Shown: positions 1-27,748 of the stretch, in pieces
How the letters are laid out: every line of letters begins with the position of its first letter
How positions within the stretch are numbered: position 1 is the stretch's first letter
Assembly (NCBI GenBank): GCA_964502625.1
Contig: CAZCXL010000001.1
Coordinates: forward strand, 1 to 31,699
Direction: 5' to 3'
From: an uncultured Planctomycetales bacterium
GTDB taxonomy: Bacteria > Planctomycetota > UBA1135
DNA length: 31,699 nucleotides
Translations under genes and position numbers: made by a program
Notes under the pieces: generated by a model
Databases searched by the model: none
What the model saw: only the letters and a program-made list of their open reading frames with translations
What the model was told of the DNA's origin: nothing

Positions 1-116
1 CCGTGATGCGTGAAACTCACCTCCGCGCCGGCAGCGGCGAGAGCGCGCACCACAGCGCGGCCGATTACGCCACTGCCACCTGTCACCAAGGCCGAACGCA
101 GCGCGAGAGGATTCAT
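1..116 (-). CDS. SDR/Rossmann-fold oxidoreductase, N-terminal fragment (runs off the left edge)
   Basis: Not in the ORF track. Translation from ATG at 116: MNPLALRSALVTGGSGVIGRAVVRALAAAGAEVSFTHH, with a TGxxGxxG dinucleotide-binding motif. The ATG overlaps the bcrD stop (ATGA, 113-116). Confidence 0.8.
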   Translation of the reverse strand, partial: MNPLALRSALVTGGSGVIGRAVVRALAAAGAEVSFTHH

Positions 117-934
117 CTTGCGAGACCGGCCGGCGCGCGACACAAGAGGCGATGCCGTCCCAGCAGCGCCGCGCCGTAGGCGCCAGCATATTCGGCGTCT
201 GGATGTAGCATCACACTGACGCCAAGTTTGCTCTCCAGCGCGTGCACCAAGGCGCGATTCTTGGAAACTCCGCCGGTCAGTCCGAGGGGCTCCTCCACTC
301 CAACTTGACGCACCAATGAGGCCAGCCGATCGGCGATGGAGGCATGGGTTCCCTGCAGAATGTTGGGAATGGATTCGCCGTTAGTCACGTGGTTGATCAC
401 TTCGGACTCTGCTAGGACCGCGCAGATCGAGGAGATCTCGCACGGATGTGCGGCTTGCAGCGCAAGAGTGCTGACGTCTTCCAGCTCGATTTCCAACGCC
501 CGCGCAACGCGCTCGACGAATCGCCCCGCGCCGGAGGCGCATTTGTCGTTCATGCGAAAGCCCGCCACCCTGCCACTGGGCAGGGTGCGCACGGCGCGCG
601 CATTCTGCGCGCCTACGTCGAGCAGAGTGCGCAAGTGGGGCATCAGAGCCACAGCGCCGCGCGCGTGACAAGTGATCTCCGTGATTTGTATCTGGCGTCC
701 CGCAACTTGATAGCGACCATAGCCCGTGGCCGCTAGATATGCGATGTCTGTGCGCGGCACTTCGGCCAGCTCCAGCGCCGCCTCCGTCACGCGTTCGGCA
801 GCCGCGTCGAGGTCGAAGTGGGTCATGGTTGCAGCGCGTCCGAGGATCTTGATCCCGCCCTGCGCCTCATCGGCTGCAATCACGATCGCCTTGGTCATGC
901 GCGAGCCCACGTCGATTCCTACGACTACGCTCAT
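113..934 (-). CDS. bcrD: Class I benzoyl-CoA reductase ATPase subunit D (BcrD/BadG-like, ASKHA fold)
   Basis: GIDVGSRMTK, TGYGR, DVGAQNARA, cluster Cys in DKCASG and SSICAVLAE, NILQGTH, TGG. The SSICAVLAE...PNIL segment matches the BcrD/BadG pattern as recalled. Position after bcrA. Confidence 0.85.
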   Translation of the reverse strand: MSVVVGIDVGSRMTKAIVIAADEAQGGIKILGRAATMTHFDLDAAAERVTEAALELAEVPRTDIAYLAATGYGRYQVAGRQIQITEITCHARGAVALMPHLRTLLDVGAQNARAVRTLPSGRVAGFRMNDKCASGAGRFVERVARALEIELEDVSTLALQAAHPCEISSICAVLAESEVINHVTNGESIPNILQGTHASIADRLASLVRQVGVEEPLGLTGGVSKNRALVHALESKLGVSVMLHPDAEYAGAYGAALLGRHRLLCRAPAGLAR

Positions 935-1737
935 TGCGTCACCTCCTGCGCGCGCGAGCCTGCTAGCGCGCGCTCCAGCGCAAAGATGGCTGCGCCGAGC
1001 GCCCCCATGAACTGACTGTCTTCGCAGACGTTCACCTTCATGCTGAGGCGTTCTCCGATTGCTTGAACCATGCCTGGATTGCGGGCAACTCCTCCCGTAA
1101 AACTCAACTCTTCCTCCAGCCCGACGCGGCGCAGTAATGACGCGCTACGACCTGCAATGGCGCGGTGCACGCCGGCCAAGATGTCCTCACGCTTGCGCCC
1201 GCGTGACAATTGATTGAGGATCTCGCTCTCGACGAACACCGTGCAGACGTTGGTGATCTTGAGTTGTACCGTGCTGTGCAGAGAAAGCGGCCCGATCTCA
1301 GCGACCTCCATTCCCATCACCTCTGCCGCCGCCGCGAGGAAGCGTCCAGTGCCCGCAGCGCACTTGTCGTTCATGCAGAAGTCCACGACTTCACCCTTCT
1401 CCGTGATGCGAATTGCTTTCGTATCTTGCCCGCCGATGTCAAGAATGGTGCGCGTGCCGGGAAACAGGTGGGCCGCACCTTTCGCATGGCACGAGATTTC
1501 GGTGATCTGCGCGTCGCCCGTGGCAACCCGAAACCGCCCGTAGCCCGTCCCCACGGTGTAGACGACCTCATGCGTTTCGATTCCCGCCTCCGCGCATGCG
1601 TGAGCGAGCACCTCTTCGCCTGCGCGAACGACGTCGGCTCCAGTCATGCGCAATCCGCGCCCGGCAATCTCGCCATTTTGGTCGAGGACGATGGCCTTGG
1701 TTTGAGTGCTTCCGATGTCGATTCCAGCGGCGTACAT
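931..1737 (-). CDS. bcrA: Class I benzoyl-CoA reductase ATPase subunit A, compact 268-aa form
   Basis: GIDIGSTQTK, GTGYGR, EISCHAKGA, DIGGQDTK, MNDKCAAGTGRFL, NVCTVF, KREDILAGVHRAI, FTGGVARN. GGAG SD upstream. Lies between bcrB and bcrD. Confidence 0.8.
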   Translation of the reverse strand: MYAAGIDIGSTQTKAIVLDQNGEIAGRGLRMTGADVVRAGEEVLAHACAEAGIETHEVVYTVGTGYGRFRVATGDAQITEISCHAKGAAHLFPGTRTILDIGGQDTKAIRITEKGEVVDFCMNDKCAAGTGRFLAAAAEVMGMEVAEIGPLSLHSTVQLKITNVCTVFVESEILNQLSRGRKREDILAGVHRAIAGRSASLLRRVGLEEELSFTGGVARNPGMVQAIGERLSMKVNVCEDSQFMGALGAAIFALERALAGSRAQEVTQ

Positions 1738-1753
1738 GACGAACTCCGGTGTT

Positions 1754-3013
1754 TCAGGCTTCCGCCGTCACACGGCGGTGTTCGAGGGACTCGAAAAACG
1801 CGTCAATGCGGTTCTTCATCTGTGCGTGCGCGAAATAGCGCGGGTCGGCGAGATCGCTCTCCACAAAAAGCGTCGGAATGTGGTGGTCGCGGATGAACTG
1901 CTCACGCAGATCGGCCTGTCCCACCGAAAATGACCGGCAGGACTTGACCGAGTGAATCACTAATGCGTCGGCTTCATACTCGGTGACGTACTGCCTCAAC
2001 AATTGCGACCGCATCTCCCAATTGCGGTTGGTGTAGCAGCCGAGCATGTACTCCGCCATGGATTCAAAAGGCCGGTCAGGGTCGTGGCGGAAGCCAAGAT
2101 CCCAGACCCCGCCCACCTTGGAGTAGGTGGACGCCACCGTCACCACCCCCCAGCGCTTGAACATCTCCCAGAAAGCGCGGAAATGCGGCCAGGCCGGCGG
2201 ACCTTCCACCACCACCCGGAAGCGCTCTTCTGGCAGCGCGCCGATGCCGCGCTCCACGCGCTCTTGCACTTCTTGATGCAGCGCTTCGTAGTAGGCCAAG
2301 CATTCGGGAGTTCCGCGGAGGGTGTACATCGGTGCCATGAAGAACACCGCTTCAAAATATGCGTCCACCGGCGATGGGCGCCGTTTCGCGCTGTGCAGAA
2401 CGTTCACCCAGAGGTCTTCGCAACGGGCCGTGCGCGCTATTGCCTCTTGATAGGCGGTTTCGTCGAAGGGTTTTCCGGTCACTCGCTCGCAAACTTTCAC
2501 AAGTTCCCGCAGTTGCGCCTCGACATACTTCACCTCCTCCCGCGTGGGACCAGCAGTGCCGCGCAAATATGGCACATCCACTACCACCATCTCGGCGCCG
2601 TAGAATTCGGCAAGGGCCTCAAACCAGCGCAGATAGGTGGCGCACCCCGCATAGTTGCACACCAACAGGTCCGGCGGCGGCAGCGAGACGCCCTGCGGCA
2701 TGTGGTTGCCCTTCAACATCATGCCGATGTCGTTCTTCACGTAACCGCAGACGTCGCCAGAATAGCCAATGTCCTCGGCGGCAAGAATGTTGGCGCCGGC
2801 GACCTTCTTGATGCCGCACTGCAGTGCGTTAACCTCCGGAAACACGAGGTGCATGCCGCAGGCTTGCAGTAGTTCCCCGATGTTTCCTGAAATGAACAGG
2901 TAGGCGACCTTCTCACCGCGCGCCGGCGCCTGTTCTACGTGCTGGTACCAATCCGCCAGCATGTCCTTTTGGAGCCGCTGGCCGGCGCCCTGATGTAGGA
3001 ATGCCTGAGTCAT
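1754..3013 (-). CDS. bcrB: Class I benzoyl-CoA reductase subunit B (BcrB/BadE; 2-hydroxyacyl-CoA dehydratase family)
   Basis: DVCGYVKNDIGM, AGCATY, RPSPVDAYF, VVEGPP, ASTYSKVGG, GFRHDP, LGCYTN, KSCRSFS, ESDLADPRYF. Three candidate [4Fe-4S] Cys ligands. Confidence 0.9.
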   Translation of the reverse strand: MTQAFLHQGAGQRLQKDMLADWYQHVEQAPARGEKVAYLFISGNIGELLQACGMHLVFPEVNALQCGIKKVAGANILAAEDIGYSGDVCGYVKNDIGMMLKGNHMPQGVSLPPPDLLVCNYAGCATYLRWFEALAEFYGAEMVVVDVPYLRGTAGPTREEVKYVEAQLRELVKVCERVTGKPFDETAYQEAIARTARCEDLWVNVLHSAKRRPSPVDAYFEAVFFMAPMYTLRGTPECLAYYEALHQEVQERVERGIGALPEERFRVVVEGPPAWPHFRAFWEMFKRWGVVTVASTYSKVGGVWDLGFRHDPDRPFESMAEYMLGCYTNRNWEMRSQLLRQYVTEYEADALVIHSVKSCRSFSVGQADLREQFIRDHHIPTLFVESDLADPRYFAHAQMKNRIDAFFESLEHRRVTAEA

Positions 3014-4185
3014 GCCATTGCCTCCTCAGAAAAGAACAAGATGGATTCCGAAAAGGTCTCGGCTTGGGTGCGAACTGAGTCGAAGCTGCCCATTTTCTCC
3101 TCGAATTCAACGGTCACGTATGGGATGCCTTCGCGCTCGAGCGCGCGTTTGTGCAGAACGTAGTCATAGAAGGCGGGCTCGCAGAACTTGGCAATGCAGA
3201 ACATCACGCCTTGCGCTCTGGAGTCGCGCACCCGCTCCAGCAAGCGCAAACTGCGTTCTGAGGGGGTCGCGTGGCGCACCACCGAACCTTCCGCGTGGTC
3301 AAAATATGCATCGACCAAGTCCTGCCAAGGATCGCTGCTGCGTGTGAGCGGTTCCTTGAACCAGCGCAATCCGCGACCGAGGTCTGAATCCACCACAAAG
3401 ATGTGGGCTTGGTCGCACACGCGCAGCAATTCGAGCGCGGGCTGTTCGCAGAAGGAACCCTCCAGCACCACCCGAACGCCGTCTTGCGGCCTGCATTCGC
3501 GCGCCTGCAGCATACTTAGCACCTCACGCAGGACGCGGTTGTGCTCGATGGGATCACGCAATCCGCCGGCGCGCACCAGAATGTACCACTCCTCCAGCGA
3601 CAGGCGCCAGGGTTCGAGTGCGCGCACCGCACTGAGTTCCCGCAGCAACCCCCGCTGCTCCTCGAAGATCTCCAACGCGTGAGCGAGATCTTCGTCGCGC
3701 ACCGTACGCCCCGTGAGTTTCCCGACCTCGCCTGCAAGTCGCTTAAGTTCCGATCGGTAGTGTCTGCGCCCAACCGCACTGATCAAGTTTTGCGGGTAGT
3801 GCAGATAGTCCACAAATTGAGACGGGAAATTGCGCTTCCACACTCCGGAGAGGTTTCGGGCGACGTCGCACAGGGATCCGAACAGCATTCCATCCAGGAA
3901 TTCGAGTCGGTTAGTGAGTCCGAGCTCAAGGGTAGATCGCGAAATCGAGCAGATGAATGATTGAATGCGCGCATCGGCGTGCTCAACTTCGATGCGCTCG
4001 CCGCCGCCCCAGAGCGCGACTGGCAGCGCGCCGGCGGCATAGATCACTTCTTGAGGCACGTACACCGGGAAAAACCCCACGCAAGCGCGGTCAGCCGCAG
4101 CCTCCTTCCAATGCCGCACGGAGTGATACCCCAGATCAAGAAGTTCGGATTTGGCCTGGCTCAGGTGTTGCTCAAGGATGCTCAT
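3010..4185 (-). CDS. bcrC: Class I benzoyl-CoA reductase subunit C (BcrC/BadD)
   Basis: PVYVPQEVIYAAG, QSFICSISRSTLELGL, LCDVARNLSGVWK, GSFCEQP, KFCEPA. 391 aa. Confidence 0.9.
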   Translation of the reverse strand: MSILEQHLSQAKSELLDLGYHSVRHWKEAAADRACVGFFPVYVPQEVIYAAGALPVALWGGGERIEVEHADARIQSFICSISRSTLELGLTNRLEFLDGMLFGSLCDVARNLSGVWKRNFPSQFVDYLHYPQNLISAVGRRHYRSELKRLAGEVGKLTGRTVRDEDLAHALEIFEEQRGLLRELSAVRALEPWRLSLEEWYILVRAGGLRDPIEHNRVLREVLSMLQARECRPQDGVRVVLEGSFCEQPALELLRVCDQAHIFVVDSDLGRGLRWFKEPLTRSSDPWQDLVDAYFDHAEGSVVRHATPSERSLRLLERVRDSRAQGVMFCIAKFCEPAFYDYVLHKRALEREGIPYVTVEFEEKMGSFDSVRTQAETFSESILFFSEEAMA

Positions 4186-4964
4186 CGATGACTCCAGCGT
4201 GGAGCGCGCTTTTCGAGGAATGCAGTAAGCCCTTCGCGCGCGTCCTGCGTCGCCATCAAGGGCCCGAGGTATTGGCGCTCCAACTCCGGCAGCACCTCTT
4301 GCAGGGCTCTGCGCCAGGGTGCGCGCGCGGCGTAGCGCGCTTGCCGCAGCGCAGCACCGGAGAGGGACTGTGCCTGGTCTTTAATCCATTGAGCCACCAT
4401 TTCGTCGAGATGATTTTGGCTGACGATGTGCTCCACCATTCCCAAGCGATGGGCCTCAATCCCGGACAAGACGCGGCCGCTCGTCACCAAGTCGAGTGCC
4501 CGAGCGGCGGACATGCGCAGAGGAAGCAATGCCGCCGCGGCCGGAGGAAACACGCCGAGCTTGATCTCCGGACAACCGAGCGTGGCATCCTCCGCAGCGA
4601 TGATCACGTCGCAGGCGAGCGCAAGCTCTAGTCCCCCGCCCAAGCAACGGCCACGCACGCTGGCGATTACCGGCGGGAGGCGAGGATCCCCGAGCATGCG
4701 CAGCAGCGAGTGAAACTCTGGGAGCATCTGCTCTACCTGACCAGGGAGATGCTCGTCAACACTGGCGCCGTAGCTGAAGTGGGCGCCGCTGCCGCGCAGC
4801 ACGATCGCTCGGAGTTCCAGCTCGGTGGTGAAAATCTCAAGCTGCTCTTTGAGCCGGCCTATTAGAGATCGATCGAGCAGATTAGCCGGAGCCGGACCAA
4901 GCTCCAGCAAGGCCGCTGCGCCACCGCTGATGCGCCTCGTTTCGAGTCGCAGGTCTTGCATCAT
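4182..4964 (-). CDS. dch: Cyclohexa-1,5-diene-1-carbonyl-CoA hydratase (crotonase family)
   Basis: HFSYGASVDEH, CLGGGLELA, PEIKLGVFPPAA, DAREGLTAFLEKR. Start moved from 5030 to the ATG at 4964 (GGAG SD, ATGA overlap with the oah stop), giving 260 aa. Confidence 0.88.
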   Translation of the reverse strand: MMQDLRLETRRISGGAAALLELGPAPANLLDRSLIGRLKEQLEIFTTELELRAIVLRGSGAHFSYGASVDEHLPGQVEQMLPEFHSLLRMLGDPRLPPVIASVRGRCLGGGLELALACDVIIAAEDATLGCPEIKLGVFPPAAAALLPLRMSAARALDLVTSGRVLSGIEAHRLGMVEHIVSQNHLDEMVAQWIKDQAQSLSGAALRQARYAARAPWRRALQEVLPELERQYLGPLMATQDAREGLTAFLEKRAPRWSHR

Positions 4965-6097
4965 GAGTCGTTCTCCGCGGCCTCGCCCGCCCACGGCGCG
5001 AACCGACGCATGAATGCAGGATCTTCCCAACTCCCGCCCTCGGCCAAAGCACGGCGCATTTCGAGGAAGTCGGCCTCCCGTTGCTCACGCGGCGCGCGAT
5101 GAAAAGTTCGGAAGCCGGCCAGCGCTTCGGTCATCATGTTGAGCGCCAGCCACGCCCGATTCCCCTCCCGATTGCGATCCCAGTGCGCAAGCTTATGGCG
5201 CCGCAAATTTTCAAGTGTGTAGGTGGTGCAATCCGGCATGGTGTTGGCTAACTTCCAAGCCAACGCCTCCACCTCCCGGTCCAGCAGGGTGAAATCGGTG
5301 GAGCAGCGCGCAAGCAGCGCCTTGGCTTCATCCTTTGCGGCTCCCGTTTTGAGCGTTCCCCAAAGAGGACGACCCCACGCGTCGTATTCGGTCCGAGTCA
5401 CCACGAGTGGATTGGGAAGATACTCCCCGTCCAACAGCGTCACCGGCGCGAGGCCATTGATCAGCCCATAGCCGAAAGCCTGATGCGCGGTCCACGGCTC
5501 GCAGAGTGTGCAAGACTCAACCGCCCTCGCCCAACCGACGTAAAGCGGAAGAAAATCCGTCGAACCGCCGACCGGAGCCGAACCGTGCTTCGGGCCGGCC
5601 TGGCCAAATCGCGCAGTGTCGGCAGCGATCGAGAAGTCACAGGCCAGGCCAAGCTCCTGACCGCCTCCGATGCGCATGCCGTTGACCCGATTGATCACCG
5701 GCTTGTCGCACTCGAGCAATGCCGATACTAGGTCGTTGAATAGGCGCATATAGCGCCGGTACTCATCGGGACGCCCGCTGTAATGCTCGCTGTATTCGGC
5801 GGTGTTTCCGCCCGTGCAAAAAGCCCTTTCGCCCACTGCTGTGAACACCACTGACGAAACCTCCGGATCGTTCGAGGCCCGACGCAACTCGAGAATCAAG
5901 TCAGCAAGCGTGCGAGTGGTGTAAGAGTTGAGCTGCTGCGGATTGTCGAGCCAGATCCAGCAGTTGAAGATGCCCTCCACCGGACAACCGCGAACATCGA
6001 GCAGAGGGCGCTTTTCGCTGCGCAGCAATGCAGGCAACGACTCCGAAGCGAGGTCGTGATTCAGAAATGACTGTTTGATGGTGGTGAACACGGTCAT
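4961..6097 (-). CDS. oah: 6-oxocyclohex-1-ene-1-carbonyl-CoA hydrolase (ring opening)
   Basis: LDNPQQLNSYTT, FCTGGNTAEY, YMRLFND, RVNGMRIGGGQE, GQAGPKHGSAPVGGSTDFLP, NPLVV insert, AWLALNMMTEA. Start moved from 6523 to the ATG at 6097 (ATGA overlap with the had stop), giving 378 aa. Confidence 0.92.
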   Translation of the reverse strand: MTVFTTIKQSFLNHDLASESLPALLRSEKRPLLDVRGCPVEGIFNCWIWLDNPQQLNSYTTRTLADLILELRRASNDPEVSSVVFTAVGERAFCTGGNTAEYSEHYSGRPDEYRRYMRLFNDLVSALLECDKPVINRVNGMRIGGGQELGLACDFSIAADTARFGQAGPKHGSAPVGGSTDFLPLYVGWARAVESCTLCEPWTAHQAFGYGLINGLAPVTLLDGEYLPNPLVVTRTEYDAWGRPLWGTLKTGAAKDEAKALLARCSTDFTLLDREVEALAWKLANTMPDCTTYTLENLRRHKLAHWDRNREGNRAWLALNMMTEALAGFRTFHRAPREQREADFLEMRRALAEGGSWEDPAFMRRFAPWAGEAAENDS

Positions 6098-7167
6098 GGC
6101 ACGAGGATGGGGCGTTCGGGAATGCGGTGTGCGCGCACTTCTTCCAACACTTCGTTGACGGCATCCATTGGAAATTGCTTCACGAAGGGTTTGACCTGGA
6201 TGGCTCCCGAGCGAATGAGTTCCAGCGCAGGCGCGTAGAGTTGCGGTCGGCAGCCCCAATTGCCGAAGGCGTCTGCATCGAATGCCATCAGATTGCTGAG
6301 GCGCACCGGCACGCGGTCGAGGCAAAAACCCACAATGCCGATGACTCCGGCCGGAGTCAGCAGGGACCAAGCCAGTTCCTGTCCCGCAGGAGAGCCACTC
6401 ATCTCCAGGATTTTGAGTCCCACTTCCGGCAGCCCAGCCTCGCGACAAGCGGATTGCGCAGCAAGCCGCGCAGCCCTGGCGTCCAAGCCGCGGGTGTTCA
6501 CGACCCTTTCCGCGCCGAAGCATTGCGCGCGCTCAAGCCGGGCTTCGTCCACGTCCACGACGACCACCCGCGCTCCGCGCGCGCGCGCGATTTGGATTCC
6601 GAAGGAGCCGATTCCGCCCGCGCCGATCAACACCACTCCGTCACCGTTCGCGACGCCTGCGCGCTCGATGGCTTGGAAGGGAGTGGTGATTGCGTCTGCC
6701 AATACCGCCACGTCCGCAGCGGTCACGCCGGCGGGCAGACGATCAGCCTCCACGAGCCAGCGCGCCGGAGCGATCAAGTGGGAAGCAAACCCTCCATGGA
6801 AGTCATTGCCGGGCATGCTCTGATGCCGACATGCGTTCTCTCTCCCTGCGCAGCAGAGTTCACATGCGCCGCAAGGAAGCACGGCGGGCAACACAACCGT
6901 TTTATTGAGCCACGCTTCCGTGCCTGCTCCAGTCATCACGACCCGACCGGCAACTTCGTGGCCCAGCGCCAATGGCAGCGAGTGCCGCGTGCGCACTCCA
7001 CCGAACAGGAATCCGAGATCGGTGTGGCATACGCCGCAGCCTTCCACGGCAATGACCACTTCCTGAGGACCGGCCCGGAACTCCGAGACACTTGCGCGCT
7101 CCAGGGGCGCGCCCGTTGATGTCATCAGCCATCGGTATCCCGCGCTGTTCAGTCCCACGGGATTCAT
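6094..7167 (-). CDS. had: 6-hydroxycyclohex-1-ene-1-carbonyl-CoA dehydrogenase (Zn-dependent MDR)
   Basis: RWLMT, GCGVCHTD, LPLALGHE, CGACELC...C, MPGNDFHGGFASH, GAGGIG, RLSNLMAFDA, GNWGC. Start placed at ATG 7167 (357 aa). Confidence 0.9.
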   Translation of the reverse strand: MNPVGLNSAGYRWLMTSTGAPLERASVSEFRAGPQEVVIAVEGCGVCHTDLGFLFGGVRTRHSLPLALGHEVAGRVVMTGAGTEAWLNKTVVLPAVLPCGACELCCAGRENACRHQSMPGNDFHGGFASHLIAPARWLVEADRLPAGVTAADVAVLADAITTPFQAIERAGVANGDGVVLIGAGGIGSFGIQIARARGARVVVVDVDEARLERAQCFGAERVVNTRGLDARAARLAAQSACREAGLPEVGLKILEMSGSPAGQELAWSLLTPAGVIGIVGFCLDRVPVRLSNLMAFDADAFGNWGCRPQLYAPALELIRSGAIQVKPFVKQFPMDAVNEVLEEVRAHRIPERPILVP

Positions 7168-7277
7168 CTCAATACAATTCCCAGAGTAGAGCAATTAGTT
7201 TCCCTTTTTTCTTATATTATGGGAATTATATTTCCCTTCCCTCCTCACGCAGCCCCCTCCACAGGGAGGCTGCCAGA
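7168..7277. promoter_or_regulatory. AT-rich divergent promoter region: minus-strand TATAAT (7225-7230) inside a GGGAA-N6-TTCCC inverted repeat (7221-7236), plus-strand TATTAT (7215-7220)
   Basis: The only markedly AT-rich intergenic stretch in the window. Lies between the divergent had and YiiX-like starts. Motifs read directly from sequence. Confidence 0.6.
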
Positions 7278-8024
7278 ATGCTCCACATGGAGTGGCTCGG
7301 GAGACGGCTGGCGGGCTACCTCTCGAAGCCCAGCAAACGCGCGGCACGGCTGGCCACGTGTTCTCCGGAACAACTCGCCGCTGCGCTCCGCAAAGGTGAC
7401 GTGCTCTTGGTGGAAGGCTCCAGCCGCTTCAGCTCGGCGATCAAGTATCTCACGCAATCCACTTGGTCGCATGCTGCGCTCTGCATCCAGGATTGCGCAC
7501 CGGACGCAGACTGCCTCTTGGAGGCGGATCTGATGGCGGGTGTGCAACTCGTGCCCTTGAGCCGGTACGCGACCAGGCACACGCGCATCTGCCGTCCGGT
7601 GGGACTGAGTGCGCAAGAATTGGATGCCGTGGTCGCGCAAGCGAAGGCACGATTGGGTCAGCAATACGACTTGCGCAACGTCTTCGACCTTGCGCGCTGG
7701 CTGATCCAGCGGCCACCCGTGCCGGAGACTTGGAAGCGGCGATTGATCGCCCTAGGCAGTGGGGATCCGACGCGCGCCATCTGCTCATCATTGATTGCGC
7801 AAGCATTCCAGTCGGTGCATTACCCCATCTTGCCTGACTTCTCGCCCGCCGTCGCGGACGGCTCGGCGGAAGCCATGGAGATCTTGAACATCCGCCACCA
7901 CAGCCTGTTTGCGCCGCGCGACTTCGACATCTCTCCCTATTTTGAAGTGGTGAAGCCGAGTCTGGCGCAGGGATTCGACCCGCATCAATTGCACTGGCTG
8001 GACGCAGCGCCTACCGCGCAGTAA
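7278..8024 (+). CDS. YiiX/YebB-like permuted papain-like (NlpC/P60, C92) cysteine amidase
   Basis: GDVLLVEG, YLTQSTWSHAAL (His), LLEAD, QYDLRNVFDL, AICSSLIAQAF (Cys): His before Cys is the permuted order. GGGAGG SD before ATG 7278, so the start was moved from 7092. Confidence 0.8.
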   Translation: MLHMEWLGRRLAGYLSKPSKRAARLATCSPEQLAAALRKGDVLLVEGSSRFSSAIKYLTQSTWSHAALCIQDCAPDADCLLEADLMAGVQLVPLSRYATRHTRICRPVGLSAQELDAVVAQAKARLGQQYDLRNVFDLARWLIQRPPVPETWKRRLIALGSGDPTRAICSSLIAQAFQSVHYPILPDFSPAVADGSAEAMEILNIRHHSLFAPRDFDISPYFEVVKPSLAQGFDPHQLHWLDAAPTAQ

Positions 8025-8030
8025 CCCGGC

Positions 8031-8702
8031 TCACCACGCCGGTGCAGCCGACTCCAGAACCAGCTCCACTCCCCCGATGGGGTGCGGCACGACCAGCCGC
8101 ACGGCATGCAAACCAATGCTCGCATCAGGCAGCGGTTGCTCTGCGCCATATTTGAGATCGCCGGCCAACGGCAAGCCCAGCGCGGAACAGGCCATGCGCA
8201 ATTGATGCGGCCGCCCGGACTCCGGCACGAGCTCCAAGAAAGTGCCGCGCACCGTGGCGCGCTCGATCCGCCAGCGCGTCCGCGCGTGTTTCGCGCGCTC
8301 CCATGCGGCCCGGGCTTCGGACACGGCACGCACGACATTGCGCTCCTCGTCTTTCACCAGCCACTGCTCAACCTCACCGGAGCCTTGCGCTTCGGCGCGC
8401 GGATTGCGCGCCTGACTCCATCCCCGATATTCCTTCAATATTTCGCCCGTGCGCCAAGCTGAGGAAAGCCGCGAGGCCGCCTTGCTGGTGCGCGCAAAGA
8501 GCAACACGCCTCCCACCGGACGATCGAGCCGATGCACCACGCCCAAGTAGACCTCGCCAGGCTTGGAGTACTTTTCCTTCAGATAGGCCTTGGCTGCGTC
8601 GAGCAGCGAGGGATCGCCGCTCGCGTCCGGCACCGTCGGGACTCCCGCCGGCTTATTCACGGCGAGCAGGTGATTGTCCTCGAAGAGAATGGTGAGTCTC
8701 AT
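8031..8702 (-). CDS. RluA-family RNA pseudouridine synthase
   Basis: EDNHLLAVNKPAG, VHRLDRPVGGVLL (catalytic Asp), GRPHQLR, PLAGDLKYG, LHA. Start moved to ATG 8702 (ATGA overlap with the upstream stop). Confidence 0.9.
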   Translation of the reverse strand: MRLTILFEDNHLLAVNKPAGVPTVPDASGDPSLLDAAKAYLKEKYSKPGEVYLGVVHRLDRPVGGVLLFARTSKAASRLSSAWRTGEILKEYRGWSQARNPRAEAQGSGEVEQWLVKDEERNVVRAVSEARAAWERAKHARTRWRIERATVRGTFLELVPESGRPHQLRMACSALGLPLAGDLKYGAEQPLPDASIGLHAVRLVVPHPIGGVELVLESAAPAW

Positions 8703-9619
8703 TCTCGGGTGAAGCGCGCGCAGAAGCCGCAAGGCAAGAGACGCGGCGCGCCGCGAGCGCCGGGACTCTGCTCCTCGGGTAAGGCCAACTCGCCGGTCTC
8801 GATCGTGCCAGGGCCGAAGTCGCGCAGCATGTTGGCAAAGGCTAGTGGCGAATAACCCACCGCATAGGCGGAGAGCACTGTGAAACTTCCGGAAATCGGC
8901 TCGAGCAGCGACGAACACGCCTCGAGTAGCGGGGCCAGACCGTGGTCCAACTCCCATTTCTCCCCTTTGGGGCCGCGTCCGTAGGAAGGAGGATCGGCCA
9001 GAATTCCGTGATAGCGCTGACCGCGGCGCACGTCGCGACGGGCGAAAGCCAGCGCGTCATCGAGCATCCAGCGGATGGCACTGGCATCCAAACCGCTCGC
9101 GCGCGCGTTCTCTGCCGCCCAATCCAAAGAAGTCCGCGACGCATCCACGTGCGTCACTTCCCAACCGCTCTTGGCCGCGAAGACGGAAGCCGCGCCCGTG
9201 TAGCCGAACAGATTCAGCAAGCGAGGCGCCGCGCCTTCCGGGAGGCGGGGCGCCAGCGCGGCCCGGCGCTCCTCCACCCAAGCCCAATTCACTGCCTGTT
9301 CGGGGAAAAGGCCGACGTGTTTGAAGGGTGTGGGACGAATCACGAGACAAGCCGGCTCGGTCCACCCCACCGCCACCTCGACCTCCCATTCCTCCGACAC
9401 TGCGCCGCCGCGGCGCTCCCAGCGGCCGCCACGATCCGACTCACGCATGAAGACGAGTTCCGCGCGCCGCGTCCACTCTTCCGCCGCCAGGCGCGGGCGC
9501 CAGAGCGCCTGCGGGTCGGGACGGCGGAGCGTGAAGCGGCCGAAGCGCTCCAACTTCTCGCCGTTGCCGGAGTCGAGCAACGCGTACGCCGCGAATGGCG
9601 GATGCGGGAAGATCGCCAA
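8699..9619 (-). CDS. Class I SAM-dependent methyltransferase, RlmI/RlmK-like (COG1092-type)
   Basis: ALLDSGNGEKLERFG, FKHVGLFPEQ, LLNLFGYTG, HVDAS, ADPPSYGRGPKGE. Start uncertain; TTG 9619 chosen because a TAGTCT -10 box lies 7 nt upstream. Confidence 0.8.
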   Translation of the reverse strand: MAIFPHPPFAAYALLDSGNGEKLERFGRFTLRRPDPQALWRPRLAAEEWTRRAELVFMRESDRGGRWERRGGAVSEEWEVEVAVGWTEPACLVIRPTPFKHVGLFPEQAVNWAWVEERRAALAPRLPEGAAPRLLNLFGYTGAASVFAAKSGWEVTHVDASRTSLDWAAENARASGLDASAIRWMLDDALAFARRDVRRGQRYHGILADPPSYGRGPKGEKWELDHGLAPLLEACSSLLEPISGSFTVLSAYAVGYSPLAFANMLRDFGPGTIETGELALPEEQSPGARGAPRLLPCGFCARFTRE

Positions 9620-9690
9620 GACGAGGAGACTACGCGCGCCGCTATCGTTTCGCTGGGCTGCTTCCTGGCCCACTCCCTGTTCCCGAGCCG

Positions 9691-10848
9691 ATGACCCTCG
9701 TCTTCGTCGCGAAAGAGTCCCGTCCTGGCGAGCACCGCGTCGCTGCCACACCCGAGACCGTCGCCCGCATGATCAAAGCGGGACTGAAGGTGCAGGTAGC
9801 GGCAGGCGCGGGCGCAGGCGCGTTCATCCCCGATTCCGCGTTTGAGGCCGCCGGCGCCACGCTGGTGGCGCAAACAGCAGGCCTGGGCGCGGCCGATCTC
9901 GTGTTGTGCGTCGCCACGCCTTCACTCCAGGACACGCGCACCTTGCGCAAGGGCGCGATCGTGCTCGCCGTGCTCGAAGGCACGCGCCAACCGGAAGCCG
10001 CGCGCGCACTCGCGGATGCCGGCGCCACCGTCTTCGCGATGGAACTCGTACCCCGCACCACCAAGGCGCAGAAGATGGACGTGCTGTCTTCGCAGGCGAA
10101 CATCGCCGGCTACAAGGCCGTGCTGATTGCCGCAGCGGCGCTGCCGAAATATTTTCCCATGCTGATGACCGCCGCCGGCACCGTGCGTCCCGCGCGCGTG
10201 GTCGTTTTCGGCGTGGGCGTGGCCGGACTGCAGGCGATCGCCACGGCGAAGCGGCTCGGCGCGATCGTGGAGGCCACCGACATCCGTCCCGAAACCAAGG
10301 AGCAGGTCGAATCGCTCGGTGCCAAATTCATCGAGGTCAAACCGGATGAAGGCGCCGCCGAGCCCAGCGTCTACGCCAAAGAGGCGAGCGAGGACTACAA
10401 GCGCCGTCAACGCGAGGCCGTGGCTGCGAGCGTCGCCCAAGCCGACGTCGTGATCACCACCGCGCAAGTGCCGGGCAAGAAGGCGCCGATTCTCGTGCCG
10501 GAGGAAATGCTGAAGGCCATGCGCCCGGGATCGGTGATCGTGGATCTTGCCGCGGAGCAAGGCGGCAACTGCCCGCTGTCACGCCCCGGCGAGACGGTGG
10601 TCCATCACGGGATCACCATCATCGGCCCGGTGAATCTGCCCTCCGGAACTTCCGTTCACGCCAGCGAGCTCTACTCGCGCAACGTGTTGGCGGCCGTTGA
10701 ATACCTGGTTCCGGCGAAGGACAACGACGCACGCGCCATCAAGCTCAACCTCGAGGACGAGATCATCGGCGCTGCGGTTGCAATTCACGGTGGCCAGATT
10801 CGCCACGCCCCCACCTCCAATGCCTTCGGCGTTCCCGCTAAGGCCTGA
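9691..10848 (+). CDS. pntA: NAD(P) transhydrogenase subunit alpha part 1 (dI domain, PntAA)
   Basis: KESRPGEHRVAATPETV, MDVLSSQANIAGYKAV, FPMLMTAAGT, GVGVAGLQAIATA, DVVITTA, DLAAEQGGNC. Start moved to ATG 9691. Confidence 0.95.
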   Translation: MTLVFVAKESRPGEHRVAATPETVARMIKAGLKVQVAAGAGAGAFIPDSAFEAAGATLVAQTAGLGAADLVLCVATPSLQDTRTLRKGAIVLAVLEGTRQPEAARALADAGATVFAMELVPRTTKAQKMDVLSSQANIAGYKAVLIAAAALPKYFPMLMTAAGTVRPARVVVFGVGVAGLQAIATAKRLGAIVEATDIRPETKEQVESLGAKFIEVKPDEGAAEPSVYAKEASEDYKRRQREAVAASVAQADVVITTAQVPGKKAPILVPEEMLKAMRPGSVIVDLAAEQGGNCPLSRPGETVVHHGITIIGPVNLPSGTSVHASELYSRNVLAAVEYLVPAKDNDARAIKLNLEDEIIGAAVAIHGGQIRHAPTSNAFGVPAKA

Positions 10849-10850
10849 TC

Positions 10851-11138
10851 ATGCTGATTCTGCTGCTCTTCGTGTTCTTGTTCGCGATCATCGCGGGCTT
10901 CGAAATCATCACCAAGGTGCCGCCCACGCTGCACACGCCGCTGATGTCGGGAGCCAACGCCATTTCCGGCATCACGGTGATCGGCGCGATCCTCTGCGCG
11001 CACCAGGAATATCCGACGGCCGCCAAAATCCTCGGCTTCATCGCGATCGTGCTGGCCATGATCAACGTGGTCGGCGGTTTCCTGGTCACGGATCGCATGC
11101 TGGGCATGTTCAGCAGCAAGAACAAGAAGGGGCGCTGA
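10851..11138 (+). CDS. pntA: NAD(P) transhydrogenase subunit alpha part 2 (membrane, PntAB)
   Basis: VPPTLHTPLMSGANAISG, NVVGGFLVTDRMLGMF. 95 aa, hydrophobic. Confidence 0.95.
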   Translation: MLILLLFVFLFAIIAGFEIITKVPPTLHTPLMSGANAISGITVIGAILCAHQEYPTAAKILGFIAIVLAMINVVGGFLVTDRMLGMFSSKNKKGR

Positions 11139-11141
11139 GCG

Positions 11142-12620
11142 ATGAACCTCGTCGATCCGCTCTACCTGGTCGCTGCGCTGCTGTTCATTTTCGGCATCAA
11201 GCGCCTGTCGAAGGTGAAGACCGCGCGCAGCGGCAACGCGCTCGCTGCGCTCGGCATGCTGATTGCCATCATCGCCGTGGTGGCTTCGCCGGACAGCGGC
11301 GTCCATCTTGACTGGCCGTGGATGATGGGAGGCCTCGTGACGGGCACGGTGCTCGGCGCACTTCTGGCGCGGACCGTGAAAATGACGGGAATGCCCGAAA
11401 TGGTGGCGCTCCTCAACGGGCTCGGCGGCGCTGCGTCTTTGCTGGTTGCGCTCGCCACCTTCTATGGGTCCTATCTTCATGCACCGGAGTTGACCGGCCT
11501 GCTGGAAGCCGGATTTCTCAAAGACACCGCCCCGGCGCGCGTCCCGGGCGGTGATCTCTCCGCCTTGGGCAGTGCGGTGTGGATGGGCGCCATCCTTGCC
11601 TCGGTCTTGATTGGCGGCATCACGCTCACGGGCAGCCTGGTGGCCATGGGCAAGTTGTCGGAGAAGATCTCGGGCGCACCGATCCTGCTGCCGGGACGGC
11701 ACTTCATCGTCGGTCTCCTGTTCCTCGGCGCAATCGCAATCGGCGCGATGTCCGGATGGGAACTCACCGGCAACACCGCAGCCCTCGCGCTCCTGGTCAC
11801 CACGATCATCGCTTGCGTGCTCGGCGTGCTCGCGGTGATTCCGATCGGTGGCGCGGACATGCCGGTGGTGGTCTCGCTGTTGAACTCGTATTCGGGCATT
11901 GCGGCCTCGATGGCGGGATTCGTGATCAACAGCCCGCTGCTGATCGCCGCAGGCGCGCTGGTGGGCGCGAGCGGCCTGATCCTCACCAACTTGATGTGCA
12001 AGGCGATGAACCGTTCGTTGCTGAACGTGTTGGTCGGCGGCTTCGGCGCTACTGCGTCCAGCGCAGGCGGCGGCAAGAGCGAGTACAAGACCGTTAAGTC
12101 CGCCGCCCCCGAAGAAGCGGCGATGATTCTTGCCGACGCCACCAGCGTGATCTTCATTCCGGGCTACGGCATGGCTGTCGCGCAAGCCCAACACGTAGTG
12201 AAAGAGCTCGGCAAAGAGCTCGAGAAACGCGGCGCCACCGTGCGCTACGCAATCCATCCGGTCGCCGGCCGCATGCCCGGACACATGAACGTGCTGCTCG
12301 CCGAGGCCGACGTGCCCTACGAGCAACTCTGGGAGATGGAGCGCATCAACTCGGAGTTCAAGAACACCGACGTCACCGTCATCATCGGCGCCAACGACGT
12401 GGTGAACCCCGCCGCGATTGACGATCCGCAGAGCCCGATCGCCGGAATGCCTATTCTCATGGCCCACGAATCGCGCACCGTGCTCATGGTGAAGCGTTCA
12501 CTCTCTCCGGGTTACGCCGGCATCAAGAATCCGCTCTTCGAACGCGACAACACGCTGATGTGCTTCGGTGACGGCAAGGCCTTCCTCGACGACGTGCTGA
12601 AGGAACTCAAGTCGGCATGA
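11142..12620 (+). CDS. pntB: NAD(P) transhydrogenase subunit beta
   Basis: MTGMPEMVALLNGLGG, IGGADMPVVVSLLNSYSG, MNRS, PGYGMAVAQAQH, HPVAGRMPGHMNVLLAE, GANDVVNP, GYAG. Confidence 0.97.
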   Translation: MNLVDPLYLVAALLFIFGIKRLSKVKTARSGNALAALGMLIAIIAVVASPDSGVHLDWPWMMGGLVTGTVLGALLARTVKMTGMPEMVALLNGLGGAASLLVALATFYGSYLHAPELTGLLEAGFLKDTAPARVPGGDLSALGSAVWMGAILASVLIGGITLTGSLVAMGKLSEKISGAPILLPGRHFIVGLLFLGAIAIGAMSGWELTGNTAALALLVTTIIACVLGVLAVIPIGGADMPVVVSLLNSYSGIAASMAGFVINSPLLIAAGALVGASGLILTNLMCKAMNRSLLNVLVGGFGATASSAGGGKSEYKTVKSAAPEEAAMILADATSVIFIPGYGMAVAQAQHVVKELGKELEKRGATVRYAIHPVAGRMPGHMNVLLAEADVPYEQLWEMERINSEFKNTDVTVIIGANDVVNPAAIDDPQSPIAGMPILMAHESRTVLMVKRSLSPGYAGIKNPLFERDNTLMCFGDGKAFLDDVLKELKSA

Positions 12621-13348
12621 TCGGGAGCCTGCGCGCCGGGCTGCGGCTCGCGTGTGGGGGCCTTTGGCTGATCTTGATCACGCCGGTCGTCCTGCTGTCC
12701 GCTCTGCTCTCGATCGGCAGCCGCGGCCGGCTCGCGCGCAACGGCGCGCGCGTGCACTGGGTCTGGTCTCGCGTGCTGGGCTGGATCTTCGGGATCCGCA
12801 TGCGCGTGGACGGTCCGCGCCCGCCGCGCGGCGCCTTCCTCGCGTCGAACCATCTCACGCACTTCGACATTCCCGTGCTTGCTTCCATTTTCCCGATGCA
12901 GTTCGTGGCCAAGGCCGAGATCGCGAAGTGGCCGCTGTTCGGACAACTCGCCCTCCTCGCCGGCACGATCTACGTGGACCGCGCTGATCGCGGCTCTACG
13001 CCGAAAATCGTGGCCCACATGAGCCGCTACCTCAAGCACAGCGCCAGCGTGGTGCTCTTCCCCGAAGGCACCTGCGGCAATGGCCTCGAGATCTCGCCCT
13101 TCAAAGCTTCCCTATTCGCTCCGCCCGTGGCATTGCAGTTGCCAACCGTACCGGTGGCGATCCGCTACGTGGGCGAGGGCGCAGTCTGGACCGAGGGATC
13201 CATGGCCTCGCACATGGCGCGCATGCTGCGCGGCAGGCGCATCGAGGTGGCGATCCGCTTCGGGGAGCCGATCCCTGCCGCCACGGACCGCAAGGCCCTG
13301 GCCGTGGAAGCGCGTCGCCGCGTCGCGGATCTCTACGCCACGCTGTAG
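12617..13348 (+). CDS. plsC: 1-acyl-sn-glycerol-3-phosphate acyltransferase (LPLAT)
   Basis: NHLTHFD (HX4D), FVAKAE, FPEGT, N-terminal hydrophobic helix. ATGA overlap with the pntB stop. Confidence 0.85.
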   Translation: MIGSLRAGLRLACGGLWLILITPVVLLSALLSIGSRGRLARNGARVHWVWSRVLGWIFGIRMRVDGPRPPRGAFLASNHLTHFDIPVLASIFPMQFVAKAEIAKWPLFGQLALLAGTIYVDRADRGSTPKIVAHMSRYLKHSASVVLFPEGTCGNGLEISPFKASLFAPPVALQLPTVPVAIRYVGEGAVWTEGSMASHMARMLRGRRIEVAIRFGEPIPAATDRKALAVEARRRVADLYATL

Positions 13349-13364
13349 GGCCTACGTTTCAGGC

Positions 13365-13370
13365 TAGAAT
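13365..13370 (+). promoter_or_regulatory. -10 element TAGAAT, 6 nt before ATG 13377 (leaderless-type)
   Basis: gcTAGAAT-ccaggc-ATG, with no SD in between. Confidence 0.55.
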
Positions 13371-13376
13371 CCAGGC

Positions 13377-13964
13377 ATGCTCCGCACGACGTCTGCCTTG
13401 ATCGCGCTCGCGGCTCTCACCGCTTGCAGCCAGACCATCCGCCAGGACGAGTCCGCCCCCAGCGGAACCGAATGCGCCTGCTGCGAAGACGGCGCGGACC
13501 TCCCGGCCTGGGTCGACGCACCGAACTTTCAAATCCTGTCGGAGCGCGTTGCCGCATCCGGCCCGCCCACTCTGGAATCCATCGCCAGCCTGCAGGCGCG
13601 CGGCTACGGCTTGGTGATCGATCTGCGCACGGACAACGAGCCCGGATTCGCCGCGGAACGCGCGGCAGTGGAGGCCGCAGGTCTCCGCTATATCCACATC
13701 CCGGTGGCCGGGATCGGCTTCGATCTCACGGACGCCGCCAAGTTGCGTGACGCGCTCGCGGACGCGCCGGAGGGCCACGTGCTGCTTCACTGCCGCAGCG
13801 GCGGTCGCGCGGGCGCGCTCTGGGGCCTGGCCCAAGGCTTCGATCAGGGCATGCTGCCCGCCGAAGCAGCGGCGCTCGCCAAAGAGAGCGGCCGGACCGT
13901 TTCCGATCCGGCCGCTGCGAAGGTCGCGACTGAACTTAATTCGGCAATCAAGCCGAAAAACTAG
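13377..13964 (+). CDS. DUF442/Blh-like (PTP/rhodanese-fold) sulfurtransferase or phosphatase domain lipoprotein
   Basis: Signal peptide with lipobox LTAC, ASGPP, VIDLRT, YIHIPV, VLLHCRSGGRA (CxxGxR active loop). Confidence 0.75.
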   Translation: MLRTTSALIALAALTACSQTIRQDESAPSGTECACCEDGADLPAWVDAPNFQILSERVAASGPPTLESIASLQARGYGLVIDLRTDNEPGFAAERAAVEAAGLRYIHIPVAGIGFDLTDAAKLRDALADAPEGHVLLHCRSGGRAGALWGLAQGFDQGMLPAEAAALAKESGRTVSDPAAAKVATELNSAIKPKN

Positions 13965-14749
13965 AAGTCGCGGCCGTTGCCGCCACCCGTGCGGCCCCGT
14001 GTCTGACCGCTGGTGGTATCGCCGCCGGTTTGGCCACGGCCGCCGCCACTGCCCCCGCCGAACCCGCGCCCGAAGTCGGAAAGTGAGGAGTAGGTCTCGA
14101 CTTGAGCCGGAGTGAGGACTGAGCCCACGGCGGCCATCTCTTTGTTGCGGATCTCCGTCATCTGCTTGCCGATAGCCTCACGGTCCATGGTCATGCCACG
14201 ACCATCTTGGAAGCCGGCGAACATGGCTTCACGGGCCGCCCACGACTCGGAGAGGGCCGAGGACACCACTTGGGACTGCGATGCGTCGAGTCCCATTTCC
14301 GTGGTCATGCGCTGGGTCAACTCGGCCACCCGCTCGGCGCGACGCGTCGCCCGCTCGGCCTCGCGCTCCGCGCGCTCCCGCTCCTCGCGTTGCACGATCA
14401 CGGCTTCCACCATGGCATCCATTCCGGGTCCGGAGGGCATGTCTGCGAAGTTAAATGCATCGGCAGCGCCAGCTGGCTGGGCCAAAGCCAGCGCGCTCGG
14501 GTCCGGACGGCGAGAAGCGTTCAGGAGGCGCCCATTCAGGTCCTCGAAGGCCAACTGCTGCGCCGCGGCGCCGCTTTCCAGCTCCATGATCCGCTGATCC
14601 AGGGCCTTCAGGAGCGGGTCTGCGGCGTAGACGGATTCTGAAGCAGAGTGCTGGCTTGCCCCTCTGTCACTTCCGAGGAAAAGCGCACCAACCAGGCCGC
14701 CGGCGAGTCCGACGACAAACATGAGCAGGGTTCGGGCGAGATCGTTCAT
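13961..14749 (-). CDS. Membrane-anchored hypothetical protein with coiled coils and LTxxQ-like (Spy/CpxP-like) motifs
   Basis: N-terminal TM (LLMFVVGLAGGLVGALFLG), charged helix EERERAEREAERATRR, GLDASQ and VLTPAQ motifs, Gly/Arg-rich tail. Fills the gap between two supported genes. Confidence 0.6.
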   Translation of the reverse strand: MNDLARTLLMFVVGLAGGLVGALFLGSDRGASQHSASESVYAADPLLKALDQRIMELESGAAAQQLAFEDLNGRLLNASRRPDPSALALAQPAGAADAFNFADMPSGPGMDAMVEAVIVQREERERAEREAERATRRAERVAELTQRMTTEMGLDASQSQVVSSALSESWAAREAMFAGFQDGRGMTMDREAIGKQMTEIRNKEMAAVGSVLTPAQVETYSSLSDFGRGFGGGSGGGRGQTGGDTTSGQTRGRTGGGNGRDF

Positions 14750-14846
14750 GGGACAGTCTGCGGAATGGCCTCCAGAGGAGAGACCCTCCAGGATACCGAA
14801 CCCTTCCCAGCCCCCCGGGTTTCGGAGTTCTAGAATGCTCGACGCG

Positions 14847-15485: not shown

Positions 15486-15495
15486 GCGCGTTCGG

Positions 15496-17343: not shown

Positions 17344-17369
17344 GGTCCGCTCATGCTAGCGGAGACGGC

Positions 17370-19217: not shown

Positions 19218-19234
19218 GCGGTTATGGTAGTCGA
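19218..19234. promoter_or_regulatory. Putative bidirectional promoter: overlapping -10 boxes TATGGT (+, 19223-19228) and TACCAT (-, 19224-19229)
   Basis: Each box is exactly 6 nt from the start codon on its own strand (ATG 19235, GTG 19217). Confidence 0.6.
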
Positions 19235-20047: not shown

Positions 20048-20080
20048 GTGACTCGCGCCCCGCTATGCTCGCGCAGCATC

Positions 20081-21355: not shown

Positions 21356-21391
21356 GGCGCCGGATGGTAGCAAGGGCCATCATGGGGAAGG

Positions 21392-23169: not shown

Positions 23170-23209
23170 GCCGCGCGGCCGAGGCCTGCTAGAATTGCGG
23201 GTTCATTCG

Positions 23210-25745: not shown

Positions 25746-25845
25746 CGCGAATGTCGCGGGTTGGGGAACACGCCCCCGCGATGGCACTCAATTCTAACAA
25801 GGCCGAAGTCTTGAAAGTCGCGGGATTCCTACTCGTGGAGACGAG

Positions 25846-27701: not shown

Positions 27702-27710
27702 GGCGGGGCC

Positions 27711-27728: not shown

Positions 27729-27748
27729 GCTCGCGCGCAGATTAGCAG

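Follow-up and report, generated by a model that had tools for sequence, protein, structure and literature searches.

What kind of enzyme is encoded by a benzoyl-CoA reductase (BCR) gene set whose B and C subunits resemble those of Thauera and Rhodopseudomonas and whose A-type ATPase lacks the long insertion of its Thauera counterpart? This question is raised by a 31,699-nt stretch of DNA from an uncultured Planctomycetales bacterium (contig CAZCXL010000001.1), here called the window in its full length, in which the BCR genes occupy the minus-strand region 113-4185. A preliminary description had read the combination as a hybrid architecture and as a minimal or ancestral-like form of class I BCR. 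Our sequence comparisons indicate that the genes very probably encode a functional, ATP-dependent, dearomatizing class I BCR that is not a hybrid. The enzyme belongs to a clade, named G1 here, which is sister to the canonical Thauera/Rhodopseudomonas clade and appears to have retained the ancestral small A subunit.

Four consecutive minus-strand open reading frames (ORFs) were found where the BCR genes had been placed. They encode C (BCR gamma/C-type subunit of the HGD-D family; 4185..3010, 391 aa), B (BCR beta/B-type catalytic subunit; 3013..1754, 419 aa), A (BCR alpha/A-type ATPase in its short form; 1737..931, 268 aa), and D (BCR delta/D-type ATPase; 934..113, 273 aa). Upstream on the same strand lie had, for 6-hydroxycyclohex-1-ene-1-carbonyl-CoA dehydrogenase (7125..6094, likely ATG at 7125, 343 aa), oah (6097..4961, ATG at 6097, 378 aa), and a dch-like gene for cyclohexa-1,5-diene-1-carbonyl-CoA hydratase (4964..4182, ATG at 4964, 260 aa). 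Downstream of D, also on the minus strand, only the 5' end of a short-chain dehydrogenase (SDR) gene is present (MNPLALRSALVTGGSGVIGR...; 116..1), as the window end cuts it. The order is thus had-oah-dch-C-B-A-D-sdr, and because six of the seven junctions are ATGA start/stop overlaps, we regard the genes as one eight-gene operon. Among these overlaps, the ATG of oah at 6097 overlaps the had stop codon, dch is joined in this way to both oah and C, and the sdr start overlaps the stop codon of D, as seen in both the sequence and its translation.

The mechanically called ORFs of the upstream genes were over-extended at their 5' ends, giving 366 aa for had (TTG at 7194), 520 aa for oah (from 6523), and 282 aa for dch. 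The shorter starts at 7125, 6097, and 4964 create the ATGA overlaps and agree with the orthologs: the 343-aa had start matches the Planctomycetota ortholog in locus L001, the oah ortholog of L001 has 376 aa, and the TIGR03200 match begins only at residue 162 of the 520-aa oah ORF. The same operon is present in the Planctomycetota loci L001, L005, and L006. An SDR gene follows D in L001 and L005, and in L001 an acyl-CoA dehydrogenase gene comes next; the SDR of the window probably acts in the lower (3-hydroxypimeloyl-CoA) pathway.

Family models place all four subunits in the class I BCR family. Pfam HGD-D (PF06050) matches C at E 7e-67 and B at E 1e-66, and BcrAD_BadFG (PF01869) matches A at E 1e-65 and D at E 4e-57. 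Two HGD-D subunits clustered with two different BcrAD_BadFG ATPases make up the gene set of this family. For every subunit, the best subunit-specific NCBIfam model was of the Thauera type (TIGR02259-TIGR02263), with scores below the equivalog cut-offs: 330 bits for C (cut-off 421.15), 417 bits for B (TIGR02260, 486.55), 215 bits for A (578), and 184 bits for D (312.85). A canonical control locus, L068, passed the cut-offs with 827 bits for B and 753 bits for A. The BZD models TIGR03190, TIGR03191, and TIGR03192 gave 118.6, 118.5, and 192.8 bits and did not reach their cut-offs of 453.8, 448.6, and 380.2, nor did the HadB and HadC models, with 184 and 200 bits against 750 and 700. Among the pathway enzymes, Had scored 417.8 bits with TIGR03201, above the cut-off of 338.65, Oah scored 465.9 bits with TIGR03200, just above 464.45, and the dch product scored 208.5 bits with its best match, TIGR03189, below 292.5.

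The Pfam families are shared with the 2-hydroxyacyl-CoA dehydratases (HADs) and their activators, and database names point in that direction as well. The best 120 homologs of A listed, each of 259-298 aa, are 62-91% identical to it. Their sources are metagenomes as well as metagenome-assembled genomes (MAGs) of Planctomycetota, Ignavibacteria, Acidobacteria, Bacteroidota, Gemmatimonadota, and Tectomicrobia, and those that carry a name are labeled 2-hydroxyglutaryl-CoA dehydratase or acyl-CoA dehydratase activase. A and D are nevertheless distinct proteins. In close relatives, their cross-identity is 42-44%, compared to 72-91% with the orthologous subunit, whereas the two solved HAD activators in the PDB are single ATPase chains. 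Since the locus has two different ATPase genes that are related only as paralogous subunits, A and D fit the heterodimer of a BCR.

The conserved motifs lead to the same assignment. All motifs previously reported for B (RPSPVDAYF, VVEGPP, GFRHDP, DLADPRYF) and C (PVYVP, RNLSGVWK, GSFCEQP) are present in the translations, and, together with the NCBIfam models, they confirm that the Thauera/Rhodopseudomonas type is the nearest to these two subunits. A has intact phosphate-1 (GIDIGSTQTK), phosphate-2 (DIGGQDTKA), and adenosine (TGGVARN) motifs. D contains the TGYGR, EITCH, MNDKC, DVGAQNARA, and SSICAVLAE motifs that had been listed for it, and the description of D as intermediate between activators and canonical BcrD held up, as its motif pattern is graded and consistent with the tree described below. 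Like every BCR-like D subunit, D has a degenerate phosphate-2 motif; this site reads DVGAQN in the window, DVGALH in the canonical type, DIGGQT in MbdP, and DIGGQD in activators. MNDKCASGAG is common to D, activators, and the MBR type, whereas canonical D has MTSQCASGSG. Conversely, SSICAVLAE and DxGAQ/L are common to D and canonical D, whereas MbdP and activators have CTVFAESE and DIGGQ.

The cysteines expected to bind iron-sulfur clusters are all in place. C89, C124, and C359 of B align with Cys95, Cys128, and Cys380 of BzdO, the three ligands of the water-bearing catalytic [4Fe-4S]-OH2 cluster (PMC11971306), and are 100% conserved in all groups compared. The cluster cysteines of the ATPases (C126/C165 in A, C132/C171 in D) are likewise 100% conserved in all groups and in HgdC, HadI, MbdQ, and MbdP. 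C has four invariant cysteines, C79, C106, C246, and C335, which are 100% conserved across G1, G2a, G3, and MbdN. The fourth, C246, is found in MbdN and canonical C but not in HadC, which speaks against a dehydratase. BzdN binds an [8Fe-9S] double-cubane cluster through six cysteines (PMC11971306; the ligand residues are not numbered in the text). Only C79, C106, and C335 align with BzdN cysteines, and the others of BzdN face P40, S82, and other non-cysteine residues, suggesting that the C subunit holds a conventional [4Fe-4S] cluster and not an [8Fe-9S] cluster as in BzdN. Taken together, the families, the Thauera-type best models, and the cluster cysteines agree with the earlier assignment to class I BCR. 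With the adjoining pathway genes counted in, every family feature that sequence can show is present.

Two further residues near the catalytic cluster of BzdO were compared. His131, one of the two residues adjoining the cluster-bound water and a proposed acid/base catalyst, aligns with Y127 of B; at this position G1 has Tyr or Phe, G2 has Tyr, and canonical BcrB and MbdO have Phe. Since His131 is replaced by Tyr or Phe outside the BZD type, the proton-relay arrangement of BzdO is not conserved there. Glu60 of BzdO, in a PE motif, is conserved in the comparison of B subunits.

To place the short A subunit, we surveyed related loci. At least 80 loci were obtained by scanning one genome per GTDB species with a six-sequence B alignment, and a further five were added by looking up homologs of A. 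The genome-scan loci are all from MAGs, the survey is not exhaustive, and ORF starts were set mechanically. The four subunits were extracted from each locus, and the loci were divided into groups with names of our own. G1, the clade of the window, has B subunits 56-93% identical to that of the window and a short A, and occurs in Planctomycetota, Neomarinimicrobiota, Acidobacteriota, Bacteroidota, Ignavibacteriales, Tectomicrobia, and Thermoplasmatota. G2a (B 45-50% identical, short A) comprises Phycisphaerae, Methylomirabilota, Rokubacteria, Verrucomicrobia, deltaproteobacterial MAGs, and others, and G2b (B 47-50% identical, short A) comprises Thermoplasmata. G3 is the canonical group (B 45-49% identical, long A) from Alphaproteobacteria and others; its members exceed the NCBIfam cut-offs, L068 being one example. 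With TIGR02260, B subunits scored 417-465 bits in G1 (cut-off 486.55) and 309-348 bits in G2.

The A subunit of the window is indeed short, with 58 residues between GIDIGS and TGYGR (as part of GTGYGR) and no insertion at this point. Among the matches listed (at least 85 loci), 37 have a short A with a GxDxGS-to-TGYGR spacing of 57-58 aa and 38 have a long A with a spacing of 199-253 aa. The long-A enzymes in this set all fall inside the single canonical clade, and its G1 members come from MAGs only. In the same set, the closest B is that of L005, a wastewater metagenome contig (93% identity), and the closest from a named genome is that of L006, a Planctomycetota MAG (77%). The long BcrA of about 437 aa given in the preliminary description is real, as the TIGR02259 model has 432 positions and the A subunit of L068 has 437 aa. 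A separate Pfam domain was sought in the canonical insertion without a match. The accompanying rule, by which small ATPases would be confined to the Bzd type, is contradicted by MbdQ (269 aa) and MbdP (273 aa; PDB 9gai).

All trees were built by neighbor joining with Kimura distances from trimmed MAFFT alignments. In the concatenated B+C+A+D tree (1338 columns, 63 taxa, rooted with the MBR type), G1 and G3 grouped together with 100% bootstrap, and G2a joined this pair with 100%; G1 itself was recovered at 82% and G3 at 100%. The window clade is therein sister to the canonical clade and not nested within it. The B+C tree supported G1 plus G3 at 97%. Because the window enzyme scores under the cut-offs, has no insertion, and branches beside the canonical clade instead of inside it, we do not count it as a member of the canonical type.

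The B tree bears on the strongest of the alternatives, which we still consider unlikely, namely that the operon encodes an MBR-type enzyme, a homolog of MbdONQP for methyl- or halo-substituted benzoyl-CoA and not for benzoyl-CoA. The MBR type was reportedly defined by Tiedt et al. in 2018. The best PDB matches of the four subunits are MbdO, MbdN, MbdQ, and MbdP, an argument that is biased because the PDB has no canonical BCR structure. A and MbdQ are equally long and share 56% identity, and the position of Dch under its equivalog cut-off would also suit a substituted substrate. The B and C subunits, however, tell against this assignment. B is 36% identical to its MBR counterpart, 46% to the canonical type, and 65% within G1, and the values for C are 36, 37, and 50%. 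The B tree places the MbdO clade (94%) outside the group of G1, G2, and G3 (86%), with BzdO and HadB farther out. Moreover, RPSPxDAYF, VVEGPP, GFRHDP, DPRYF, and RNLSGxW are common to the window and the canonical type but differ in MbdO and MbdN, and substrate preference is not readable from sequence. Since B and C fall outside the MBR clade, the window enzyme is not of the MBR type. Nesting of the subunits inside a described subclass with an equally short A had been named as grounds for rejecting the earlier reading; they do not nest in this way, as the identity of B and C to MbdO and MbdN is only 36% and the MBR enzymes form a clade of their own. The existence of the MBR type as such a subclass nonetheless makes the short A less surprising.

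The ATPase trees concern the possibility, which we regard as quite improbable, of a true hybrid that combines a Thauera-type B/C module with an A/D module from an MBR-, Bzd-, or activator-like system. In its favor, the topology of B and C is not recovered by the A+D tree, A has a higher identity to MbdQ (56%) than to canonical BcrA (44%), and for D the values are alike, with 40% to MbdQ and 38% to canonical BcrD. On the other hand, no node that conflicts with the B/C topology exceeds 51% bootstrap in the A, D, or A+D trees, and the resolution of the single-subunit A and D trees is too low for the canonical ATPases to be placed. Judged by raw identity, the ATPases farthest from those of the window are the canonical ones (A 44%, D 38%), and these carry the derived motifs MNDRCAAGCG, CTVFAGAE, and MTSQCASGSG, consistent with fast evolution on the canonical stem, which would explain the low identity. 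SSICAVLAE and the degenerate DxGA(Q/L) motif also link D with canonical BcrD and not with MbdP or activators, and a short A occurs in G1, G2a, and G2b alike, with G1 plus the canonical group at 100% in the concatenated tree. A chimera reading of the A and D trees was dropped because of their poor resolution.

The earlier label of a hybrid architecture is thus not borne out: B and C are sister to the canonical type, A and D provide no supported conflict, and D has signatures (SSICAVLAE, DxGAQ) in common with canonical BcrD that MbdP lacks. No exchange of modules is needed, because a short A is the rule in three BCR-like clades, in the MBR type, and in HAD activators. The term ancestral-like, by contrast, holds for the ATPase module, in which the long A is limited to one derived clade. 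The outgroup A-type ATPases MbdQ (269 aa), HadI, and HgdC are all short. Given the monophyly of the long A and the short form in all outgroups (MBR, HAD activators), the A of the window represents the ancestral state, and the insertion of roughly 140-195 residues in BcrA/BadF would have arisen later, on the canonical stem.

That the genes encode a HAD with its activator, or another radical enzyme of the BCR/HAD family acting on a non-aromatic substrate, is very improbable despite the database names, the shared Pfam families, and a Tectomicrobia G1 locus (L004) that lacks dch, had, and oah and has amidohydrolase_2 flanks, given that B is 26% identical to HadB versus 46% to canonical BcrB and that translational coupling joins the reductase genes to those of Dch, Had, and Oah, enzymes of the dearomatized ring only.

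As a class I BCR of the G1 clade, the enzyme would work in the manner of its family, and the following scheme is carried over from PMC11971306 and from established knowledge of the Thauera BCR. Reduced ferredoxin, which is not encoded in the window, would reduce a [4Fe-4S] cluster held between A and D by two cysteines each. MgATP binding and hydrolysis would then push an electron of very low potential to the iron-sulfur cluster of C, from which it would move to the three-cysteine, water-bearing [4Fe-4S] cluster of B. At the B site, benzoyl-CoA or a close analogue would undergo a Birch-like reduction to cyclohexa-1,5-diene-1-carbonyl-CoA, and the co-transcribed Dch, Had, and Oah would hydrate, oxidize, and hydrolytically open the ring, yielding 3-hydroxypimeloyl-CoA. 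Benzoyl-CoA itself is probably the substrate, though with less certainty than the reductase function, as the scores of Dch and the four BCR subunits below their cut-offs mean that the substrate could be a substituted benzoyl-CoA.

Gene neighborhoods in other phyla are in line with this pathway. G1 loci of Ignavibacteria and Bacteroidota carry a clear Oah (569 and 551 bits against the cut-off of 464). In the Ignavibacteriales G1 locus L002/L003, a two-subunit 2-oxoacid:ferredoxin oxidoreductase (14888-17266) is encoded just downstream of C-B-A-D, had, and an acyl-CoA dehydrogenase gene, an arrangement that resembles the ferredoxin-regenerating system of Thauera. The translational coupling to Dch, Had, and Oah in the window, together with the strong Oah and the oxidoreductase in other phyla, suggests that G1 enzymes deliver the dienoyl-CoA to a ring-cleavage pathway. 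In the Tectomicrobia G1 locus, no dch, had, or oah is found near C-B-A-D (7428-11619), and the enzyme possibly acts on a different aromatic acyl-CoA; its flanks contain three amidohydrolase_2 (PF04909) genes, hemerythrins, and molybdenum hydroxylase genes. G2a loci (e.g., L021, L033, L040, L045, and L077) mostly have no dch, oah, or had within 8 kb and may act on other substrates.

Short-A C-B-A-D operons were also seen in archaeal MAGs of Thermoplasmatota/Methanomassiliicoccales (L016, L017, and L018 in G1; L019-L028 in G2b). The B subunits of the archaeal G1 loci are 59-62% identical to that of the window and nest among bacterial sequences, which points to gene transfer between the domains.

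Several results weigh against a functional BCR of the G1 clade in this operon. Dch and all four BCR subunits lie under their NCBIfam equivalog cut-offs. The A+D-only tree fails to recover G1 plus the canonical group (9% bootstrap) and weakly puts the canonical ATPases outside all short-A groups (36%). The trees are distance-based and not maximum likelihood, and the Mbd, Bzd, and Had references were copied from HMMER alignment print-outs, with a few terminal residues missing. A ferredoxin motif (CxxCxxCxxxC[PAG]), sought in all six frames of the window, was not found; no ferredoxin-regenerating gene is present in the window, which ends just after D; and there is no CoA ligase among the window ORFs scanned.

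We consider it an even chance that G1 constitutes a fourth subclass of class I BCR, one that keeps the ancestral architecture of the Thauera-type enzyme, with small ATPases throughout, and is spread over at least seven bacterial phyla and Thermoplasmatota archaea. If so, ATP-dependent anaerobic reduction of aromatic rings, for which class I BCRs are key oxygen-independent enzymes, would be under-counted in uncultured lineages. Annotations call G1 members 2-hydroxyacyl-CoA dehydratases or activases, since their scores fall under the curated BCR cut-offs, and, provided that they work as BCRs, surveys based on cut-offs or names would miss this lineage as a BCR in Planctomycetota, Acidobacteriota, Bacteroidota, Ignavibacteria, Marinimicrobia, and Thermoplasmatota. 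The insertion of BcrA/BadF would then be late, clade-specific, and dispensable for the basic mechanism, and G1 would offer a naturally minimal relative of the Thauera type for structural and mechanistic work. The enzyme extends a well-understood family incrementally and its mechanism is not new; the main value of the locus is evolutionary and practical, lying in the late insertion, the minimal relative, and a clade that models and names do not call BCR.

Beyond the operon, the window contains housekeeping genes according to an ORF scan, including a pseudouridine synthase, a FecCD/ABC importer, and polysaccharide genes. An A+T-rich tract (...GGGAAATATAATTCCCATAATATAAGAAAAAAGGGAAAC...) at 7195-7260 lies upstream of had, between this gene and a divergent C92-family amidase gene (7092-8024, plus strand). 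This tract is likely a promoter or operator region; scans for sigma-70 promoters, terminators, and inverted repeats upstream of had gave nothing convincing. The PntA/PntB proton-translocating NAD(P) transhydrogenase is encoded at 9595-12620 on the plus strand, and a 560-aa ORF on the minus strand (10785-12467) matches no family and has the look of a pntB shadow ORF. Two tandem paralogous transporters of the CitMHS family with internal TrkA-C domains (615 and 796 aa) are encoded at 15496-19760 on the minus strand. The G+C content is 0.60-0.62 in the operon region (1-7000), compared to 0.64-0.68 over most of 8000-28000, and about 0.62 again at 28-31 kb; the lower value of the operon is a weak hint at horizontal acquisition.

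How does the window enzyme compare with the known systems? No published account of a short-A sister clade was found in the literature searched, which was of limited extent. Three types of class I BCR have been named, BCR, MBR, and BZD, and attempts to characterize tetrameric BCR- or MBR-type enzymes are reported to have failed (PMC11971306). The HAD systems (HadBC/HadI and HgdAB/HgdC; PDB 3o3m, 4eht, 1hux) are of the same superfamily and fold families as the window enzyme. HadI and HgdC are as long as A, show 41% identity to it, and have identical MNDKCAAGTG and DIGGQD motifs. Each solved activator entry has one ATPase chain, whereas the window has two distinct ATPase subunits, and the gene context of the window is ring dearomatization and not amino-acid fermentation. 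BzdNOPQ of the BZD type (Aromatoleum sp. CIB; BzdNO PDB 8s02) is of the same family, with the same three cysteine ligands of the catalytic cluster and small ATPases. Its BzdO is 25% identical to B of the window, the invariant C246 of C is absent from BzdN, and the extra BzdN cysteines are not kept in the window. The window enzyme does not belong to the BZD type.

MbdONQP of the MBR type (PDB 9g87, 9gai, 9gal, 9gba) is a heterotetramer in which both ATPases are small, as in the window (269/273 versus 268/273 aa). The 56% identity of A to MbdQ extends over the full length, whereas the identities of B, C, and D to MbdO, MbdN, and MbdP lie at 35-38% (B 36%, C 36%, D 37%). MbdN has the same four conserved cysteines as C, and MbdP differs from D in having DIGGQT and CTVFAESE in place of DVGAQN and CAVLAESE. 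Closest in B and C is the canonical BCR of Thauera aromatica (BcrCBAD) and Rhodopseudomonas palustris (BadDEFG). C-B-A-D stand beside had, oah, and dch in both the canonical and the window loci, RPSPxDAYF, VVEGPP, GFRHDP, DPRYF, RNLSGxW, and GxFCEQP are common to their B and C subunits, and they share the iron-sulfur cysteines, SSICAVLAE, and the degenerate phosphate-2 motif of D. The identities between the two are 46% for B, 37% for C, 44% for A, and 38% for D. Canonical A subunits have about 430-475 aa with an insertion of about 140-195 residues, which A of the window lacks (spacing 199-253 versus 58), and the activator-like MNDKCAAGTG of A and MNDKCASGAG of D in the window stand against MNDRCAAGCG and MTSQCASGSG in the canonical enzymes.

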